This document shows, piece after piece, positions 98 to 30,960 of a DNA stretch of 64,000 bases. The DNA comes from Mobula hypostoma (taxonomy: Eukaryota). Under the pieces are notes generated by a model that saw only the letters and a program-made list of their open reading frames with translations, did no database searches and had not been told where the DNA came from. The stretch is taken from positions 50,220,001 through 50,284,000 of the forward strand of contig NC_086108.1 of assembly GCF_963921235.1 (NCBI RefSeq), in the 5' to 3' direction. The translations under genes and the position numbers were made by a program. The stretch's first letter is position 1. Each line of letters opens with the position of its first letter.

Positions 98-424
98 AAT
101 GACATAGGTAGGAAAAGGGATGAGGTCCTGAAAGAAGAATATAGGGAGCTAGGAAGGGAGTTGAGAAAAAGGACCGCAAAGGTAGTAATCTCGGGATTAC
201 TGCCTGTGCCACGCGACAGTGAGAGTAGGAATGCGATGAGGTGGAGGATAAATGCGTGGCTGAGGGATTGGAGCAGGGGGCAGGGATTCAAGTTTTTGGA
301 TCATTGGGACCTCTTTTGGCGTAGGTGTGACCTGTACAAAAAGGACGGGTTACACTTAAATCCTAGGGGGACCAATATCCTGGCAGGGAGATTAGCGGGG
401 GCTACTGAGGTGACTTTAAACTAG
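98..424 (+). CDS. CR1 ORF1 C-terminal fragment (SGNH/GDSL esterase-like domain), 5'-truncated
   Basis: In frame NDIGRK (tail of the GxND block) ... VVISGLLP ... DGLHLN (DxxH block), ending TAG at 422-424. Confidence 0.85.
   Translation, partial: NDIGRKRDEVLKEEYRELGRELRKRTAKVVISGLLPVPRDSESRNAMRWRINAWLRDWSRGQGFKFLDHWDLFWRRCDLYKKDGLHLNPRGTNILAGRLAGATEVTLN
415..421 (+). promoter_or_regulatory. Candidate -1 programmed ribosomal frameshift slippery site T_TTA_AAC at the CR1 ORF1/ORF2 junction
   Basis: X_XXY_YYZ heptamer phased with ORF1 codons (ACT TTA AAC TAG). A -1 slip gives TTT AAA CTA GAA TGG, which is the ORF2 frame. Confidence 0.6.
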
Positions 425-3400
425 AATGGTTGGGGGGTGGGAATCAAATTAAAGCGGCTAGGTGTGAGGAGGTTAGTTCACAACAGAGGGATGGGAACCA
501 GTGCAGAGAGACAGAGGGGTGTAAAGTGAGCGTAGAAGCAAAAAGTACAAAGGGGAAAAGTAAAAGTGGCAGGCCGACAAATCCAGGGCAAGCATTAAAA
601 AGGGCTAAGAGAGTTGTAAAAGAGCGCCTGAAGGCTTTATGTGTCAATGCAAGGAGCATTCGTAATAAGGTGGATGAATTGAAAGTGAAGATTGTTATTA
701 ATGATTATGATATAGTTGGGATCACAGAGACATGGCTCCAGGGTGACCAGGGATGGGAGCTCAACGTTCAGGGATATTCAATATTCAGGAGGGATAGACA
801 TGAAGGAAGGGGAGGTGGGGTGGCGTTGCTGGTTAAAAAAGAGATTAACGCAATAGAAAGGAAGGACATAAGCCGGGAAGATGTGGAATCGATATGGGTA
901 GAGCTGCGTAACACTAAGGGGCAGAAGACGCTGCTGGGAGTTGTGTACAGGCCACCTAACAGTAGTAGTGAGGTCAGAGATGGTATTAAACAGGAAATTA
1001 GAAATGTGTGCAATAAAGGAACAGCAGTTATAATGGGTGACTTCAATCTACATGTAGACTGGGTGAACCAAATTGGTAAAGGTGCTGAGGAAGAGGATTT
1101 CTTGGAATGTATGCGGGATGGTTTTTTGAACCAACATGTCGAGGAACCGACTAGAGAGCAGGCTATTCTGGACTGGGTTTTGAGCAATGAGGAAGGGTTA
1201 ATTAGCGATCTTGTCGTGAGAGGCCCCTTGGGTAAGAGTGACCATAATATGGTGGAATTCTTCATTAACATGGAGAGTGACGTAGTTAATTCAGAAACAA
1301 AGGTTCTGAACTTAAAGAGGGGTAACTTTGAAGGTATGAGACATGAATTAGCTAAGATAGACTGGCAAATGACACTTCAAGGATTGACGGTGGATATGCA
1401 ATGGCAGGCATTTAAAGGTTGCATGGATGAACTACAACAATTGTTCACCCCAGTTTGGCAAAAGAATAAATCAAGGAAGGTAGTGCACCCGTGGCTGACA
1501 AGAGAAATTAGGGATAGTATCAATTCCAAAGAAGTAGCATACAAATTAGCCAGAGAAAGTGGCTCACCTGAGGACTGGGAGAAATTCAGAGTTCAGCAGA
1601 GGAGGACAAAGGGCTTAATTAGGAAGGGGAAAAAAGATTATGAGAGAAAACTGGCAGAGAACATAAAAACGGACTGTAAAAGCTTTTATAGATATGTAAA
1701 AAGGAAAAGACTGATAAAGACAAATGTAGGTCCCCTGCAAACAGAAACAGGTGAATTGATTATGGGGAGCAAGGACATGGCAGACCAATTGAATAATTAC
1801 TTTGGTTCTGTCTTCACTAAGGAGGACATAAATAATCTTCCAGAAATAGTAAGGGACAGAGGGTCCAGTGAGATGGAGGAACTGAGCGAAATACATGTTA
1901 GTAGGGAAGTGGTGTTAGGTAAATTGAAGGAATTGAAGGCAGATAAATCCCCAGGGCCAGATGGTCTGCATCCCAGAGTGCTTAAGGAAGTGGCCCAAGA
2001 AATAGTGGATGCATTAGTGATAATTTTTCAAAACTCGTTAGATTCTGGACTAGTTCCTGAGGATTGGAGGGTGGCTAATGTAACCCCACTTTTTAAAAAA
2101 GGAGGGAGAGAGAAACCGGGGAATTATAGGCCGGTTAGCCTAACGTCGGTGGTGGGGAAACTGCTGGAGTCAGTTATCAAGGATGTGATAACAGCACATT
2201 TGGAAAGCGGTGAAATGATCGGACAAAGTCAGCATGGATTTGTGAAAGGAAAATCATGTCTGACGAATCTCATAGAATTTTTTGAGGATGTAACTAGTAG
2301 AGTGGATAGGGGAGAACCAGTGGATGTGGTATATTTGGATTTTCAAAAGGCTTTTGACAAGGTCCCACACAGGAGATTAGTGTGCAAACTTAAAGCACAT
2401 GGTATTGGGGGTAAGGTATTGGTGTGGGTGGAGAATTGGTTAGCAGACAGGAAGCAAAGAGTGGGAATAAACGGGACCTTTTCAGAATGGCAGGCGGTGA
2501 CTAGTGGGGTACCGCAAGGCTCAGTGCTGGGACCCCAGTTGTTTACAATATATATTAATGACTTGGATGAGGGAATTAAATGCAGCATCTCCAAGTTTGC
2601 GGATGACACGAAGCTGGGTGGCAGTGTTAGCAGTGAGGAGGATGCTAAGAGGATGCAGGGTGACTTGGATAGGTTGGGTGAGTGGGCAAACTCATGGCAG
2701 ATGCAATTTAATGTGGATAAATGTGAAGTTATCCACTTTGGTGGCAAAAATAGGAAAACAGATTATTATCTGAATGGTGGCCGATTAGGAAAAGGGGAGG
2801 TGCAACGAGACCTGGGTGTCATTATACACCAGTCATTGAAAGTGGGCATGCAGGTACAGCAGGCGGTGAAAAAGGCGAACGGTATGCTGGCATTTATAGC
2901 GAGAGGATTCGAGTACAGGAGCAGGGAGGTACTACTGCAGTTGTACAAGGCCTTGGTGAGACCACACCTGGAGTATTGTGTGCAGTTTTGGTCCCCTAAT
3001 CTGAGGAAAGACATCCTTGCCATAGAGGGAGTACAAAGAAGGTTCACCAGATTGATTCCTGGGATGGCAGGTCTTTCATATGAAGAAAGACTGGATGAAC
3101 TGGGCTTGTACTCGTTGGAATTTAGAAGATTGAGGGGGGATCTGATTGAAACGTATAAGATCCTAAAGGGATTGGACAGGCTAGATGCGGGAAGATTGTT
3201 CCCGATGTTGGGGAGGTCTAGAACGAGGGGTCACAGTTTGAGGATAGAGGGGAAGCCTTTTAGGACCGAGGTTAGGAAAAACTTCTTCACACAGAGAGTG
3301 GTGAATCTGTGGAATTCTCTGCCACAGCAAACTGTTGAGGCCAGTTCATTAGCTATGTTTAAAAGGAAGTTAGATATGGCCCTTGTGGCTACAGGGGTCA

Positions 3401-3429
3401 CGGGGTATGGAGCGAATGCTGGGTTCTGA
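415..3429 (+). CDS. CR1 ORF2: AP-like endonuclease plus reverse transcriptase, intact
   Basis: EN motifs NARS, ITETW, GDFN, SDH. RT motifs KSPGPDG, YRPVSL, LDFQKAFDKV, GVPQGSVLGP, FADD. The frame is open from 409. The track start at 430 is TTG, and the first in-frame ATG is at 1033. Confidence 0.95.
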   Translation, partial: FKLEWLGGGNQIKAARCEEVSSQQRDGNQCRETEGCKVSVEAKSTKGKSKSGRPTNPGQALKRAKRVVKERLKALCVNARSIRNKVDELKVKIVINDYDIVGITETWLQGDQGWELNVQGYSIFRRDRHEGRGGGVALLVKKEINAIERKDISREDVESIWVELRNTKGQKTLLGVVYRPPNSSSEVRDGIKQEIRNVCNKGTAVIMGDFNLHVDWVNQIGKGAEEEDFLECMRDGFLNQHVEEPTREQAILDWVLSNEEGLISDLVVRGPLGKSDHNMVEFFINMESDVVNSETKVLNLKRGNFEGMRHELAKIDWQMTLQGLTVDMQWQAFKGCMDELQQLFTPVWQKNKSRKVVHPWLTREIRDSINSKEVAYKLARESGSPEDWEKFRVQQRRTKGLIRKGKKDYERKLAENIKTDCKSFYRYVKRKRLIKTNVGPLQTETGELIMGSKDMADQLNNYFGSVFTKEDINNLPEIVRDRGSSEMEELSEIHVSREVVLGKLKELKADKSPGPDGLHPRVLKEVAQEIVDALVIIFQNSLDSGLVPEDWRVANVTPLFKKGGREKPGNYRPVSLTSVVGKLLESVIKDVITAHLESGEMIGQSQHGFVKGKSCLTNLIEFFEDVTSRVDRGEPVDVVYLDFQKAFDKVPHRRLVCKLKAHGIGGKVLVWVENWLADRKQRVGINGTFSEWQAVTSGVPQGSVLGPQLFTIYINDLDEGIKCSISKFADDTKLGGSVSSEEDAKRMQGDLDRLGEWANSWQMQFNVDKCEVIHFGGKNRKTDYYLNGGRLGKGEVQRDLGVIIHQSLKVGMQVQQAVKKANGMLAFIARGFEYRSREVLLQLYKALVRPHLEYCVQFWSPNLRKDILAIEGVQRRFTRLIPGMAGLSYEERLDELGLYSLEFRRLRGDLIETYKILKGLDRLDAGRLFPMLGRSRTRGHSLRIEGKPFRTEVRKNFFTQRVVNLWNSLPQQTVEASSLAMFKRKLDMALVATGVTGYGANAGF

Positions 3430-3462
3430 GTTGGATGATCAGCCATGATCATAATAAATGGC

Positions 3463-3528
3463 GGTGCAGGCTCGAAGGGCCGAATGGCCTACTCCTGCAC
3501 CTATTTTCTATGTTTCTATGTTTCTATG
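3463..3528 (+). other. CR1 3'-terminal stem-loop and 8-bp microsatellite tail
   Basis: GGTGCAGG (3463-3470) pairs with CCTGCACC (3494-3501), with an inner GGCC-GAAT-GGCC hairpin, followed by (TTTCTATG)3. Confidence 0.8.
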
Positions 3529-3675
3529 TAAAACTTCTCAGATTCTTTTCCCCCCGTCTTCTACTAAGATTTACAGTGTTGACATAATTATGTAATATTT
3601 TGGCTTATTTTTAACGATTAGATAAAACAGTACAAAATCTCTCTGGTTGGCCCTGCAGAGTGACCACTCACCCAC

Positions 3676-3849
3676 CTTCTCAGCCTCGTTCAACTGGCCC
3701 AGTAAGAGGTGCAGGGAGCCGATGTTGAAGCAGATTTTGGAGCTGGGCTCCCGAATCGCAGCGAGAGTATCCAGCGCCGTTATCCATTCTTGTTGGTCCG
3801 CTGCCGTGATCGCCTCATCCCACAGCCGTATGGTGTCGGTCAAAGACAT
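3676..3849 (-). CDS. NCF2: Neutrophil cytosol factor 2 (p67phox), first coding exon (58 aa, TPR region); gene continues left of the window
   Basis: MSLTDTIRLWDEAITAADQQEW...SKICFNIG...EAEK matches the p67phox N-terminus (human MSLVEAISLWNEG...SRICFNIG...EAEK). Phase-0 donor AAG|GTGGGT at 3675. Neighbouring ARPC5 in the same orientation matches human synteny. Confidence 0.9.
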
Positions 3850-4430
3850 GCTGGTCTCCGGGTCTACGAGCGGGGGCTGCGATGTGTGAAACCGCGTGTC
3901 CTACACCGGTTCCTGACACCGCCGCGTCTGCCCAGTTTCTTCGAACGAAGCGTTGCAAATCAACTTCAAACGCAAGACTGACTTCTGGGCCAATTTCACA
4001 GGAAATCAGAGCACTGACTTTGCCACTTGACTCAGCTGACCAGCATGAATAGGCAAGAGCGCTAAAAGTATCTGCTGGACTTCACCCGCACACCGTTCGA
4101 AACATTTAAACATTGCAATAATGTGGATGAGGGGAAGTGAAAAAGACGTGGGCGATTTAACAGGGCCAATTCCAACCCCTCCCTACGCATTTTCCGTTTG
4201 TTTTGATTTTCCACTTAATAACCAATGCATCCGCTCATTGGATTTCTTCTGCTAATTGTTACCGAGGAGCGAGCCGTGATGCCCTGACGCAGGGCTGTGC
4301 CCCCACCCTGATCGCTCTGCGTTCATGTTTCCCCGGCAACAAAAATACCAACTCTGCCTCCCAGTGCGAGCCGGCTGCAGAAGCCGGAACTACCACAGTT
4401 TGGAACTGGGGCAGACGCTGCTGAGATTTG
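3850..4430. promoter_or_regulatory. Putative bidirectional promoter between NCF2 and the NmrA-like gene
   Basis: CpG-enriched unique DNA. ARE cores TGACTTTGC (4015-4023) and TGACTCAGC (4028-4036, contains AP-1). ETS-IRF composite GGAAGTGAAA (4133-4142). CCAAT boxes near 3990, 4166, 4222 and 4237 (reverse). Confidence 0.55.
4250..4430 (+). other. Putative non-coding first exon of the NmrA-like gene (5' end uncertain)
   Basis: Consensus donor TTG|GTGAGT at 4430/4431 downstream of the CCAAT boxes. The ATG exon at 9035 begins with a splice acceptor, so an upstream exon is required. Confidence 0.45.
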
Positions 4431-4588: not shown

Positions 4589-7040
4589 ACTGAAGGAAGA
4601 GTGAGTAAGGGATTTGAAAGTTGGAGGGGGAGGGGGAGATCCAAAATGATAGGAGAAGACAGGAGGGGGAGGGATGGAGCCAAGAGCTGGACAGGTGATT
4701 GGCAAAAGGGATACGAGAGGATCATGGGACAGGAGGTCCGGGAAGAAAAGCGGGGGGGGGGGGGACCCAGAGGATGGGCAAGGGGTATATTCAGAGGGAC
4801 AGAGGGAGAAAAAGGAGAGTGAGAGAAAGAATGTGTGCATAAAAATAAGTAACAGATGGGGTACGAGGGGGAGGTGGGGCATTAGCGGAAGTTAGAGAAG
4901 TTGATGTTCATGCCATCAGGTTGGAGGCTACCCAGACGGAATATAAGGTGTTGTTCCTCCAACCTGAGTGTGGCTTCATCTTTACAGTAGAGGAGGCCGT
5001 GGATAGACATGTCAGAATGGGAATGCGATGTGGAATTAAAATGTGTGGCCACTGGGAGATCCTGCTTTCTCTGGCGGACAGAGCGTAGGTGTTCAGCAAA
5101 GCGGTCTCCCACTCTGTGTCGGGTCTCGCCAATATATAGAAGGCCACATCGGGAGCACCAGACGCAGTATATCGCCCCAGCCGACTCACAGGTGAAGTGT
5201 TGCCTCACCTGGAAGGACTGTTTGGGGCCCTGAATGGTGGTAAGGGAGGAAGTGTAAGGGCATGTGTAGCACTTGTTCCGCTTACACGGATAAGTGCCAG
5301 GAGGGAGATCAGTGGGGAGGGATGGGGGGGACGAATGGACAAGGGAGTCGCGTAGGGAGCGATCCCTGCGGAATGTAGAGGGGGGGAGGGAAAGATGTGC
5401 TTAGTGGTGGGATCCCGTTGGAGGTGGCGGAAGTTACGGAGAATAATATGTTGGACCCGGAGGCTGGTGGGGTGGTAGGTGAGGACCAGAGGAACCCTAT
5501 TCCTAGTGGGGTGGCGGGAGGATGGAGTGAGAGCAGATGTACATGAAATGGGGGAGATGCGTTTAAGAGCAGAGTTGATAGTGGAGGAAGGGAAGCCCCT
5601 TTCTTTAAAAAGGGAAGACATCTCCCTCGTCCTAGAATGAAAAGCCTCATCCTGAGAGCAGATGCGGCGGAGACGGAGGAATTGCGAGAAGGGGATGGCG
5701 TTCTTGGAAGAGACAGGGTGAGGAGAGGAATAGTCCAGATAGCTGTGAGAGTCAGTAGGCTTATAGTAGACATCAGTGGATAAGCTCCAGAGACAGAAAG
5801 ATCTAGAAAGGGGAGGGAGGTGTCGGAAATGGACCAGGTAAACTTGAGGGCAGGGTGAAAGTTGGAGGCAAAGTTAATAAAGTCAATGAGCTCTGCATGC
5901 ATGCAGGAAGCAGCACCAATGCAGTCGTCGATGTAGCAAAGGAAAAGCGGGGGACAGATACCAGAATAGGCACGGAACATAGATTGTTCCACAAAGCCAA
6001 CAAAAAGGCAGACATAGCTAGGACCCATACGGGTGCCCATAGCTACACCTTTAGTTTGGAGGAAGTGGGAGGAGCCAAAGGAGTAAGGACTATTAAGAGT
6101 AAGGACTAATTCCGCTAGACGGAGCAGAGTGGTGGTAGCGGGGAACTGATTAGGTCTGGAATCCAAAAAGAAGCGTAGAGCTTTGAGACCTTCCTGATGG
6201 GGGATGGAAGTATATAGGGACTGGACATCCATGGTGAAAATAAAGTGGTGGGGGCCAGGGAACTTAAAATCATTGAAAAGTTTAAGAGCGTGAGAAGTGT
6301 CACGAACATATGTAGGAAGGGATTGAACAAGGGGGGATAAAACCGTGTCGAGGTATGCAGAAACGAGTTCGGTGGGGCAGGAGCAAGCTGAGACAATAGG
6401 TCGGCCAGGACAAGCAGGTTTGTGGATCTTGGGTAGGAGGTAGAAACGGGAAGTGCGAGGTGTGGGAACTATAAGGTTGGTAGCAGTGGATGGGAGATCC
6501 CCTGAGCGGATAAAGTCGGTGATGGTGTGGGAGACAATGGCCTGGTGCTCCTTAGTGGGGTCACAATCGAGGGGTAAATAAGAGGAGGTATCCGCAAGTT
6601 GTCGCTGTGCCTCGGCAAGGTAGAGGTCAGTACGCCAGTCTACAACAGCACCCCCCTTATCGGCGGGTTTAATAATAAGGTTAGGATTAGTGCGGAGGGA
6701 GTGGAGAGCAGAGCGTTCCGAAGAAGTGAGGTTGGAATGGGGACAAGGTGCAGTGAAGTCGAGACGGTTGATGTCCCATTGGCAGTTAGCAATAAAGAGA
6801 TCCAGAGCAGGCAGAAGACCAGAGCGGGGTGTCCATGAAGAAGAGGAGGGTTGAAGACGGGAGACGGGGTCATTGGTGTCTTTCTTCCCGGTCCTCCTGT
6901 CCCATGATCCTCTCATACCCCTTTTGCCTATCACCTGTCCAGCTCTTGGCTCCATCGCTCCCCCTCCTGTCTTCTCCTATCATTTTGGATCTCCCCCTCC
7001 CCCTCCCACTTTCAAATCCCTTACTCACTCTTCCTTCAGT

Positions 7041-27838: not shown

Positions 27839-30800
27839 AGTGAAACAACATAGTGCCACGTGGGTGGCTAAAAGTGGGGAAATGTATAGACCGTAATGGG
27901 GGACCGGAATGATAGAGCGGAGGAAGGGGAAAACAGAAATAAATCTAAGATAGTGAGCAGTAAAGATGTCAGGAAAGACAGGCAGGTGCTGGGGCAAGTG
28001 TGTAGCCATTGGGATGAGTTGCAGTGCAAAAAAGTTGCAGTGAAATCAAAGCCAAAAGTACCAAATACTGGTCTTAAGGTGTTGTACTTAACTGCACGCA
28101 GCATAAGCAATAAGGTGGATGATCTTGTTGTACAGCTACAGGTTGGCAGGTATGATATTATGGCCATCACTGAGATGTGGGTAAAGGATGCATGTCTCTG
28201 GGAGCTGAACGTCCAAGGATACACGGTGTATCTGAAGGATAGGAAGGTAGGCAGACGGGGAGGCGTGGCATTATTAGTAAGAAATGATATTAAATCATTA
28301 GAAAGAGGTGACATAGGATTGGAAGGTGCAGAATCTTTATGGGTTGAGCTAAGAAATAGCAGGGGTAAAAGGACCCTGATGGCAGTTATTTATAGTCCTC
28401 CAAACAGCTGCAGGGATGTGGACTACAAATTACAACTGGAAATGGAAAAGGCTTGTCAGAAGGGCAGTGTTATGATAATTGTAGGGGATTTTAACATGCG
28501 AGTAGATTGGAAAAATCAGGTCGGCACTGGATCTCAAGAGAGAGAATTTGTAGAATGTTTGCGGGATGGCTTTTTAGAACAGCTTGTTGTTGAGCCCACT
28601 AGGGGATCGGCTGTACTGGATTGGGTATTGTGTAATGAACCGGAGGTGATTGGAGAGATTGAGGTGAAGGAACCCTTAGGAGGCAGTGATCATAACATGA
28701 TTGAGTTCACTGTGAAATTAGAAAAAGGGAAGCCGAAATCTGATGTGTCGGTGTTTCAGTGGAGTAAAGGAAACTACAGTGGCATGAGAGAGGAACTGGC
28801 TAAAGTTGACTGGAAAGAGACACTGGCGGGAAAGACGGCAGAGCAGCAGTGGCTGGAGTTTATGCGAGAAATGAGGAATGTGCAAGACAGGTATATTCCA
28901 AAAAAGAAGAAATTTTCGAGTGGAAAAAGGATGCAACCGTGGTTGACAAGAGAAGTCAAAGCCAAAGTTAAAGCTAAGGAGAGGGCATACAAGGAAGCAA
29001 AAATTAGTGGGAAGACAGAGAATTGGGAAGTCTTTAAAACCTTACAAAAGGAAACCAAGAAGGTCATTAAGAGAGAAAAGATTAACTATGAAAGGAAACT
29101 AGCAAATAATATCGAAGAGGATACTAAAAGCTTTTTCAAGTATATAAAGAGTAAAAGACAGATGAGAATAGATATAGGACCGATAGAAAATGATACTGGA
29201 GAAATTGTAATGGGAGATGAGGAGATGGCAGAGGAACTGAACAAGTATTTTGCATCAGTCTTCACTGAGGAAGACATCAGCAGTATTCCAGACACTCAAG
29301 GGTGGCAGGGAAAAGTGTGCGTGGTCACAATTACGATAGAGAAAGTACTCAGGAAGCTGAATAGGCTAAAGGTCGATAAATCTCCTGGACCAGATGGAAT
29401 GCACTCTTGTGTTCTGAAGGAAGTAGCTGTGGAGATTGCGGAGGCATTAACGATGATCTTTCAAAAGTCGATAGATTCTGGCATGGTTCCGGAGGACTGG
29501 AAGATTGAAAATGTCACTCCGCTATTTAAGAAGGGGGCAAGGAAGCAAAAAGGAAATTATAGACCTGTTAGCTTGACGTCGGTGGTTGGGAAGTTGTTGG
29601 AGTCGATTGTCAAGGATGAGGTTACAGAGTACCTGGAGGCATATGACAAGATGGGCAGAATTCAGCATGGATTCCTTAAAGGAAAATCCTGCCTGACAAA
29701 CCTATTACAATTTTTTGAGGAAATTACCAGTAGGCTATACAAGGGAGATGCAGTGGATGTTGTATATTTGGATTTTCAGAAGGCCTTTGACAAGGTGCCA
29801 CACATGAGGCTGCTTAACAAGATAAGAGCCCATGGAATTACAGGAAAGTTACATATGTGGATAGAGCGTTGACTGATTGGCAGGAAACAGAGAGTGGGAA
29901 TAAAGGGATCCTATTCTGGTTGGCTGCCTGTTACCAGTGGTGTTCCACAGGGATCAGTGTTGGGGCCGCTTCTTTTTACATTGTACATCAACGATTTGGA
30001 TTATGGAATAGATGGCTTTGTGGCTAAGTTTGCTGACGATATGAAGATAGGTGGAGGGGCCGGTAGTGCTGAGGAAACGGAGAGTCTGCAGAGAGACTTG
30101 GATAGATTGGAAGAATGGGCAGAGAAGTGGCAAATGAAGTACAATGTTGGAAAGTGTATGGTTATGCACTTTGGCAGAAAAAATAAATGGGCAGACTATT
30201 ATTTAAATGGGGAAAGAATTCAAAGTTCTGAGATGCAACAGGACTTGGGAGTCCTCGTACAGGATTCCCTTAAAGTTAACCTCCAGGTTGAGTCGGTAGT
30301 GAAGAAGGCGAATGCAATGTTGGCATTCATTTCTAGAGGAATAGAGTTTTGGAGCAGGGATGTGATGTTGAGGCTCTATAAGGCGCTGGTGAGACCTCAC
30401 TTGGAGTACTGTGGGCAGTTTTGGTCTCCTTATTTAAGAAAGGATGTGCTGATGTTGGAGAGGGTACAGAGAAGATTCACTAGAATGATTCCGGGAATGA
30501 GAGGGTTAACATATGAGGAACGTTTGTCCGCTCTCGGACTGTATTCCTTAGAGTTTAGAAGAATGAGGGGAGACATAGAAACATTTCAAATGTTAAAAGG
30601 CATGGACAGAGTGGATGTGGCAAAGTTGTTTCCCATGATGGGGGAGTCTAGTATGAGAGGGCATGACTTCAGAATTGAAGGGCGCCCTTTCAGAACAGAA
30701 ATACTAAAGAATTTTTTTTAGTCAGAGGGTGGTGAATCTATAGAATTTGTTGCCACGGGCAGCAGTGGAGGCCAAGTCATTGGATGTCTTTAAGGCAGAG

Positions 30801-30960
30801 ATTGATAGGTATCTGAGTAGCCAGGGCATCAAAGGTTATGGTGAGAAGGCAGGGCAGTGGGACTAAATAGGATAAAATGGATCAGCTCATGATAAAATGG
30901 CGGAGCAGACTCGATGGGCCGAATGGCCTACTTCTGCTCCTTTGTCTTATGGTCTATGGT
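27839..30960 (+). mobile_element. 5'-truncated CR1 LINE (different subfamily), ORF2 disabled
   Basis: EN-RT ORF 27896-29872 ends at a TGA in a conserved Trp position and continues in frame to FADD, with indels near 30570 and 30718. 3' stem-loop and TATGGT tail present. Tentative TSD ATGGAAA at 27832-27838 and 30962-30968. Confidence 0.9.

Follow-up and report, generated by a model that had tools for sequence, protein, structure and literature searches.

A conserved slippery heptamer at the ORF1–ORF2 junction of CR1 retrotransposons suggests synthesis of the reverse transcriptase by −1 ribosomal frameshifting

Long interspersed nuclear elements (LINEs) of the CR1 group are the dominant retrotransposons of most vertebrate species (PMC13343379). 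How retrotransposons without long terminal repeats (non-LTR elements) translate their second open reading frame (ORF2) has been called an open question, and the worked cases are ones of reinitiation (PMC3894237, PMC3708506). Here we analyse a CR1 element in a 64,000-nt stretch of the Mobula hypostoma genome (contig NC_086108.1, positions 50,220,001 to 50,284,000; hereafter the window). The element shares an esterase ORF1, an ORF2 with APE endonuclease and reverse transcriptase (RT), a 3′ tandem repeat and 5′ truncation with the canonical vertebrate CR1 LINEs (PMC13343379, PMC3905857), and its junction word is identical to that of vertebrate CR1 consensuses (PMC13343379). Observed at this junction were a slippery heptamer in ORF1 phase, a −1 offset of ORF2, a stop-free linker without AUG, and conservation with exchange among canonical heptamers. 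From these features we consider it likely that programmed −1 frameshifting yields a fusion of the ORF1 and ORF2 proteins (ORF1p and ORF2p). Neither frameshifting nor ORF2 translation is mentioned in the passages searched in the two CR1 papers.

Retroviruses, LTR elements and nidoviruses, which use −1 frameshifting (gag-pol, ORF1a/1b; PMC5009743), have the same X_XXY_YYZ arrangement, an AUG-less polymerase ORF in the −1 frame and the same set of heptamers. On mammalian ribosomes U_UUA_AAC, G_GGA_AAC and A_AAA_AAC rank with the heptamers most prone to shifting; HIV uses U_UUU_UUA, and G_UU(A) is known as a variant (PMC5009743). Unlike these cases, CR1 is a non-LTR element without a protease, so a fusion would be expected to stay intact, and no pseudoknot or strong hairpin was found in the U_UUA_AAC CR1 families. 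L1 and SART1 solve the same problem, that of low-level ORF2 expression from a LINE RNA with two cistrons. In L1 the ORFs are separated by a spacer and ORF2p is free, whereas the CR1 frames of the window overlap. The UAAUG stop-start of SART1 needs an AUG that is missing in the window family, although UAAUG occurs in 3 of 17 published CR1 junctions. The frameshift suggestion for HeT-A concerns gag only, and that for Paramecium LINE groups 1 and 2 a +1 shift or else reinitiation; a conserved −1 heptamer that links ORF1 with ORF2 is involved in neither case. No report of frameshifting at the CR1 junction was found among the full-text matches listed, and an earlier remark in the 1997 turtle and chicken CR1 papers, in Kapitonov and Jurka 2003, in Kojima 2005 or in Repbase notes is quite possible.

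The element, a single 5′-truncated CR1-type LINE at 98–3529 on the forward strand of the window, has the following features.

98–424 (+): 3′ part of ORF1, 5′-truncated, SGNH/GDSL esterase domain, ending ...VTLN and stop (Pfam PF13472, E 7e-11; match to protein P0001)
406–408 (+): TGA in the −1 frame, restricting slippage entry into ORF2 to the final 5 ORF1 codons (frame inspection)
409–3429 (+): ORF2, 1006 codons stop to stop, first ATG at 1033 (APE endonuclease and RT)
415–421 (+): candidate slippery heptamer T_TTA_AAC in ORF1 phase, immediately 5′ of the stop (sequence; conservation)
422–424 (+): ORF1 stop codon TAG; in the −1 frame CTA G.., with CTA = Leu (sequence)
422–645 (+): 224-nt linker without Met, open in the −1 frame only (0 stops, versus 6 in frame 0 and 8 in frame +1)
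427–446 (+): G-rich tract separated from the heptamer by 5 nt, candidate 3′ stimulator (G4Hunter; G-runs in relatives)
646, 721, 1036, 1237 and 2596 (+): ORF2 motifs NARS, ITETW, GDFN and SDH (endonuclease) and FADD (RT), respectively (sequence)
3430–3529 (+): 3′ untranslated region (UTR) with a terminal (CTATGTTT)x3.8 tandem repeat at 3501–3529, without poly(A) (sequence)

ORF1 ends ACT TTA AAC TAG, which places TTTAAAC in the phase T_TTA_AAC. The −1 frame opens directly behind the TGA, begins GDFKLEWLGGG... and overlaps ORF1 at 409–424. The first ATG in this frame comes at codon 209, beyond NARS (codon 80) and ITETW (codon 105) and just before GDFN (codon 210); Met was absent from the first 208 codons and occurred 20 times in the other 798. 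Translation from this ATG would leave out the first half of the endonuclease, motifs of which have catalytic roles in the L1 endonuclease. The ATG at 426 lies in the third frame and opens only 8 codons, while a TTG at 430 is in the ORF2 frame. A preliminary description, made from the letters of the window alone, had reported the heptamer and its phase, the opening of ORF2 at 409, the lack of an in-frame ATG before 1033 and the out-of-frame ATG426, and all of these were reproduced; the 5′ truncation was absent from that account.

In-phase canonical heptamers were rare elsewhere, with none at 997 internal codons of the window ORF2 and 30 at 7558 codons (0.4%) in eight related ORF2s. TTTAAAC itself was present 11 times on the forward strand of the window, and therefore position and phase, rather than the word, carry the signal. 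The junction thus combines an X_XXY_YYZ heptamer, phased with the upstream ORF, and a long −1 ORF that is open from the heptamer and has no usable start.

The element was classified as a CR1-group LINE by its Pfam domains, its 3′ repeat, the esterase tree and the likeness of its junction. ORF2 contained PF03372, PF14529 and PF00078, as expected of an APE endonuclease and RT. ORF1 contained PF13472, and the full-length relative P0001 matched PDB 4c1b (E 9e-28). A short 3′ tandem repeat without poly(A) is a CR1 feature, and the element has it. Poly(A) is described as unique to Zenon (PMC13343379). The esterase tree set the element apart from the ZfL2-1-like (L2) clade, and its junction resembled those of CR1-labelled ray consensuses. 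Comparison with P0001 placed the 5′ truncation at approximately 98, leaving the copy without the first approximately 203 codons of ORF1. The remaining 108 aa were 100% identical to residues 204–311 of P0001, a 311-aa Mobula hypostoma protein, and the family is for this reason probably young. No convincing target-site duplication was found for the element. Without a promoter and an ORF1 start, the window copy is a passive record of the signal, which therefore belongs to the family and not to the expression of this copy.

Junctions at the DNA level were collected without reference to the junction itself by scanning prokaryotic genome records with ORF2 patterns only, which gave 78 loci (L001–L078); the ORF1 alignments A2 and A3 were too divergent for genome scanning. 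The loci were near-complete eukaryotic CR1-group LINEs in dozens of bacterial and archaeal records, evidently contamination. A 'Klebsiella' SGNH hydrolase (P0415) and a 'Carnobacterium' RT (P0032) at NCBI look like the same artefact.

An esterase ORF1 was present in four of the 78 loci, and all four carried an in-phase canonical heptamer at its end. ORF1 of L013 and L007 ended T_TTA_AAC TAG, and that of L001 and L067 ended T_TTT_TTA followed by one codon and the stop (ORF1 of L067 is broken upstream, and its end was placed by alignment with L001). The esterases of L001 and L007 shared 27–30% identity with the window ORF1. In three of the loci, L013, L001 and L067, the endonuclease lay in the −1 frame, and the linker was stop-free in the −1 frame only, with −1/0/+1 stops of 0/2/3, 0/10/14 and 0/9/19. 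As in the window, the first Met of L007, L013 and L067 came after the endonuclease start. In five loci without an esterase (L003, L009, L047, L057 and L066) the upstream frame ended without an in-phase heptamer, not all of these frames being verified ORF1s; L047 had one approximately 190 nt before the end of its frame.

The preliminary description had held that loss of the heptamer or of the −1 offset in other CR1 families would speak against a frameshift. Heptamer, phase and offset were kept from rays to birds and in elements with ORF1s only 27–30% identical, and in other lineages the heptamer was replaced by other canonical slippery heptamers. The conservation goes beyond what the protein needs, and exchange was for other slippery sites only. 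This comparative evidence supports the probable −1 frameshift proposed there. The label 'coronavirus-type' is too narrow, because relatives carry heptamers of the retroviral type at this position.

Gene models and published consensuses extended the sample. ORF1 and ORF2-frame gene models of a frog (Ranitomeya) matched in two frames over 28–29 codons (14 in one) and gave G_TTA_AAY TAG with a −1 offset, a first-position variant like the equine arteritis virus site. A turtle gene model gave T_TTA_AAY from a match over 8 codons. Among the 19 candidates for this two-frame inference most had runs of chance length (4–8 codons), and the four frog models (14–29) alone stood clearly above. For Supplementary Table 2 of PMC13343379 the analysis covered the 400 bases at the start of each entry; these consensuses are noisy, the junctions were judged by eye, and species were read from label abbreviations. 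TTTAAACTA matched 23 times, 17 times at esterase/linker junctions (halosaur, alligator 2, crocodile 3, bowfin, bullfrog, chimaera, stingray, coelacanth, sawfish, catshark 2 and dogfish 3) and 6 times elsewhere. With motif-independent anchors inside the esterase, the heptamer was found at 9 of 9 junctions among the matches listed, one further entry ending before its junction. Variants of the first base gave no match for C, 3 for A (none at a junction) and 7 for G (0 of 6 at a junction among the matches listed). This base is a wobble position, yet T was fixed in these junctions. In one catshark entry, again by eye, the −1 frame was open into the endonuclease. The junction word was absent from the supplements of PMC11303007 and PMC2734521. 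One entry of the table, AldAff_Crack-2, is labelled Crack and has an esterase-type end with the same heptamer; it may be a mislabelled CR1, or the signal may be more widely spread.

The same junctions bear on termination–reinitiation, in which ribosomes would restart just 3′ of the ORF1 stop, at a UAAUG as in SART1 or independently of AUG as in L1 (for example at TTG430), and produce a free ORF2p. Reinitiation is established in other LINEs (PMC3708506, PMC3894237, PMC5009743) and would also account for the open linker. Three of the six TAA junctions among the 17 consensuses read on as TAATG, the ATG being in frame with ORF2; some shark families have this UAAUG stop-start, and P0026 starts with Met at about this place, probably at an in-frame AUG overlapping UAA. 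However, such an AUG is missing in 14 of the 17 published junctions and in the window, where the stop is TAG, the nearest ATG is out of frame, and the overlap of ORF1 and ORF2 leaves no L1-type spacer. Reinitiation also leaves unexplained the X_XXY_YYZ at the ORF1 end, the fixed wobble base and the switching among canonical slippery sites. We regard it as unlikely as the general route to ORF2, although it could act alongside frameshifting in some of the shark UAAUG families.

Since the final ORF1 codons are the heptamer, ORF1 C-termini report on the site. Among 173 esterase ORF1 proteins, 118 had a normal C-terminus, 46 stopped short and 9 ran on; the search profile itself contained LN, in 2 of its 310 columns, which may bias the sample slightly. 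The terminal tripeptide was encodable as X_XXY_YYZ in 80 of the 118 complete CR1-group ORF1s, and in 90 when positions within three residues of the end were counted, compared with 3.6% of internal positions (1232 of 34470) and with 7 of the 120 C-termini of ORF2-type proteins used as a control. LN ends were the most frequent (69), followed by GN (10) and KN (2). The named LN-ending members included proteins from rays, sharks, a snake, lizards, turtles, a poison frog and a swallow. In a bird-centred search, 39 of 42 assessable ORF1s ended in LN (of 120 in total, 76 were unassessable and 2 had other tails). In P0027, P0011, P0191, P0424 and P0006, which are gene models or mutated copies, the reading continues past ORF1, either into the ORF2 frame (FKL...) or across the stop; in P0027, from Hypanus, esterase and endonuclease form one chain.

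The base preceding the terminal dipeptide covaried with it. Before LN, where the heptamer needs T, residues with pyrimidine-only codons outnumbered those with purine-only codons 24:1; before GN, where it needs G, the ratio was 0:9, all nine being Gln. The background ratio was 456:365. The Fisher p of 2e-7 for LN versus GN is inflated, as the sequences are related and their independence is overstated. A tree of 115 of the 118 ORF1s (three shorter than 150 aa were left out), built with the last six residues excluded, implied 14 changes of LN, 7 of GN and 6 of FF/FL. QFLN (P0200) adjoined YQGN (P0256) on this tree, and SKN adjoined SGN. The heptamer thus appears to have been exchanged between lineages more than once (xLN, QGN, SKN, xFL), and the wobble base in front of it covaried. 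The terminal motif was lacking in two clades, one of 8 rows, among them a row close to the solved zebrafish L2 esterase, and one of 7; the signal is therefore not universal among esterase ORF1s.

These termini could instead reflect a constraint on the protein, with the C-terminal Leu-Asn of the esterase kept, the heptamer incidental and ORF2 reached otherwise (internal initiation or splicing). N311 was invariant in an 18-protein alignment, and esterase ORF1s are structured proteins. However, Leu was encoded by TTA, with a preceding wobble T, in every U-type DNA junction seen, and LN was replaced by GN, KN and FL, dipeptides encoded by slippery sites. The tail beyond the DGLHL block varied from 24 to 39 aa, yet the motif was still terminal. 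The solved L2-clade homologue ZfL2-1 ends ...LRTI (PMC3905857), and thus the esterase fold does not need LN; a protein constraint also leaves aside the linker, which is kept open from the heptamer onward. We consider this explanation very unlikely. Least probable of all is copy-specific decay, by which ORF2 lost its start codon or gained an indel and the junction is not that of an active element: genomic LINE copies do decay, L007 and L067 have such indels and the window copy is 5′-truncated, but its ORF2 is stop-free over 1006 codons, another copy matches its ORF1 part at 100% identity, and junctions of this geometry are found again in many families. Among these explanations, only slippage accounts for the exchange of canonical heptamers with a covarying wobble base.

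We therefore return to programmed −1 frameshifting. In full-length elements, ORF1 would be translated and most ribosomes would stop at the TAG. A minority of them would, while Leu-tRNA is paired to UUA and Asn-tRNA to AAC, slip one base back to UUU AAA, read CUA in place of the stop and pass through a basic linker into the endonuclease and RT. The predicted product is an ORF1p–ORF2p fusion of approximately 1,310 aa (the 311-aa ORF1 of P0001 plus 1002 codons) with the junction ...VTL(N/K)-LEWLGGG..., which would enter the ORF1p particle at low stoichiometry. The stimulator would be the G-rich tract in U_UUA_AAC families and a hairpin in the U_UUU_UUA family, and the adjacent stop may add a pause. 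Slippage, its rate, the fusion, the 'set ratio' of the preliminary description and the stimulator are all predictions from sequence. The CR1 signal is real, family-wide and probably functional. Our confidence is evenly balanced on the broader proposition of a clade-wide, unreported and uncleaved fusion with a non-canonical stimulator.

In addition to the UAAUG junctions and P0026, several observations weigh against frameshifting. In the frog heptamer the first base departs from the canonical pattern. The L007 endonuclease is in the +1 frame, the locus being one base shorter than L013 approximately 20 nt downstream, and L001 alone has Met codons in the linker. The four esterase loci represent only two families, which with the window make three independent cases. 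Of the complete ORF1s, 38 of 118 failed the terminal test, 10 of them passing at most three residues from the end; the remaining failures include the ZfL2-1-like clade, the second motif-less clade and probably decayed copies. The overstated independence behind the covariation test belongs here as well. A stable fold 3′ of the heptamer was absent in the window, L007 and L013 (z about 0), and no Rfam frameshift element was found 3′ of the heptamer. Long-range pairing between the G-tract and the 3′ UTR was rejected as a candidate: the best partner of the G-tract lay in the 3′ UTR for the window, L007 and L013, and 10–17 of 60 shuffles paired as well and 15–26 of 60 also chose the UTR.

The preliminary description had placed a G-rich segment 5 nt after the heptamer as a possible weak hairpin or G-quadruplex. 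Its start at 427 was confirmed, whereas the hairpin at 427–446 was negligible (−1.2 kcal/mol, with 44 of 200 shuffles as good); longer folds of the window had z of −0.28 to 0.59 versus shuffles. The G4Hunter score of the tract, 1.85, was in the top 0.45% of the 3089 20-nt windows of the element. Similar G-runs followed the heptamer in L007 and L013 (top 0.5% of their elements by G4Hunter) and, by eye, in many published consensuses. No natural G-quadruplex stimulator was known at the time of PMC5009743, and there are 3′ stimulators that lack structure. L001 and L067 had a common 7-bp stem with one compensatory change, 12 nt past the heptamer as counted, a comparison of two sequences with no statistical power. 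Its z was −2.2 for a short L001 fold and −1.0 for L067, and a stimulatory role of this stem is suggestive only.

Taken across sharks, amphibians, reptiles and birds, the junctions suggest that CR1 makes its copying enzyme by frameshifting and not by the restart known from other LINEs. If true, the CR1 RT would be tethered to ORF1p, altering the view of ribonucleoprotein assembly and cis preference. CR1 ORF2 annotations without a proper start would be explained, and an artificial AUG would be unsuited to CR1 retrotransposition assays. The group would also offer many natural frameshift cassettes, some without evident RNA structure.

Many more distant ORF2 relatives (among P0054–P0136) had 2A-like D-x-E-x-NPGP motifs before the endonuclease. 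Such motifs, described in PMC3708506, are a different recoding solution at the same position. In L007 (3665–4918, +), and also in P0230, the CR1 ORF1 had an SH3 domain (PF14604, E 7e-9) between an N-terminal cysteine cluster and the esterase; a text search of the ORF1 survey PMC4120745 returned no mention of SH3.

Elsewhere in the window, a copy of a second CR1 family was present at 27890–30958 (+), with an ORF2 57% identical and a frame break near 29872; it had no ORF1 match and hence gave no junction. Overlapping frames with a GIY-YIG-like end at 4882–6976 (−) look like a broken RT, presumably of the Penelope type. A 109-aa frame at 3571–3900 (−) gave the impression of an exon from a TPR-containing host gene, and if it is one, the CR1 may lie antisense in an intron of that gene.

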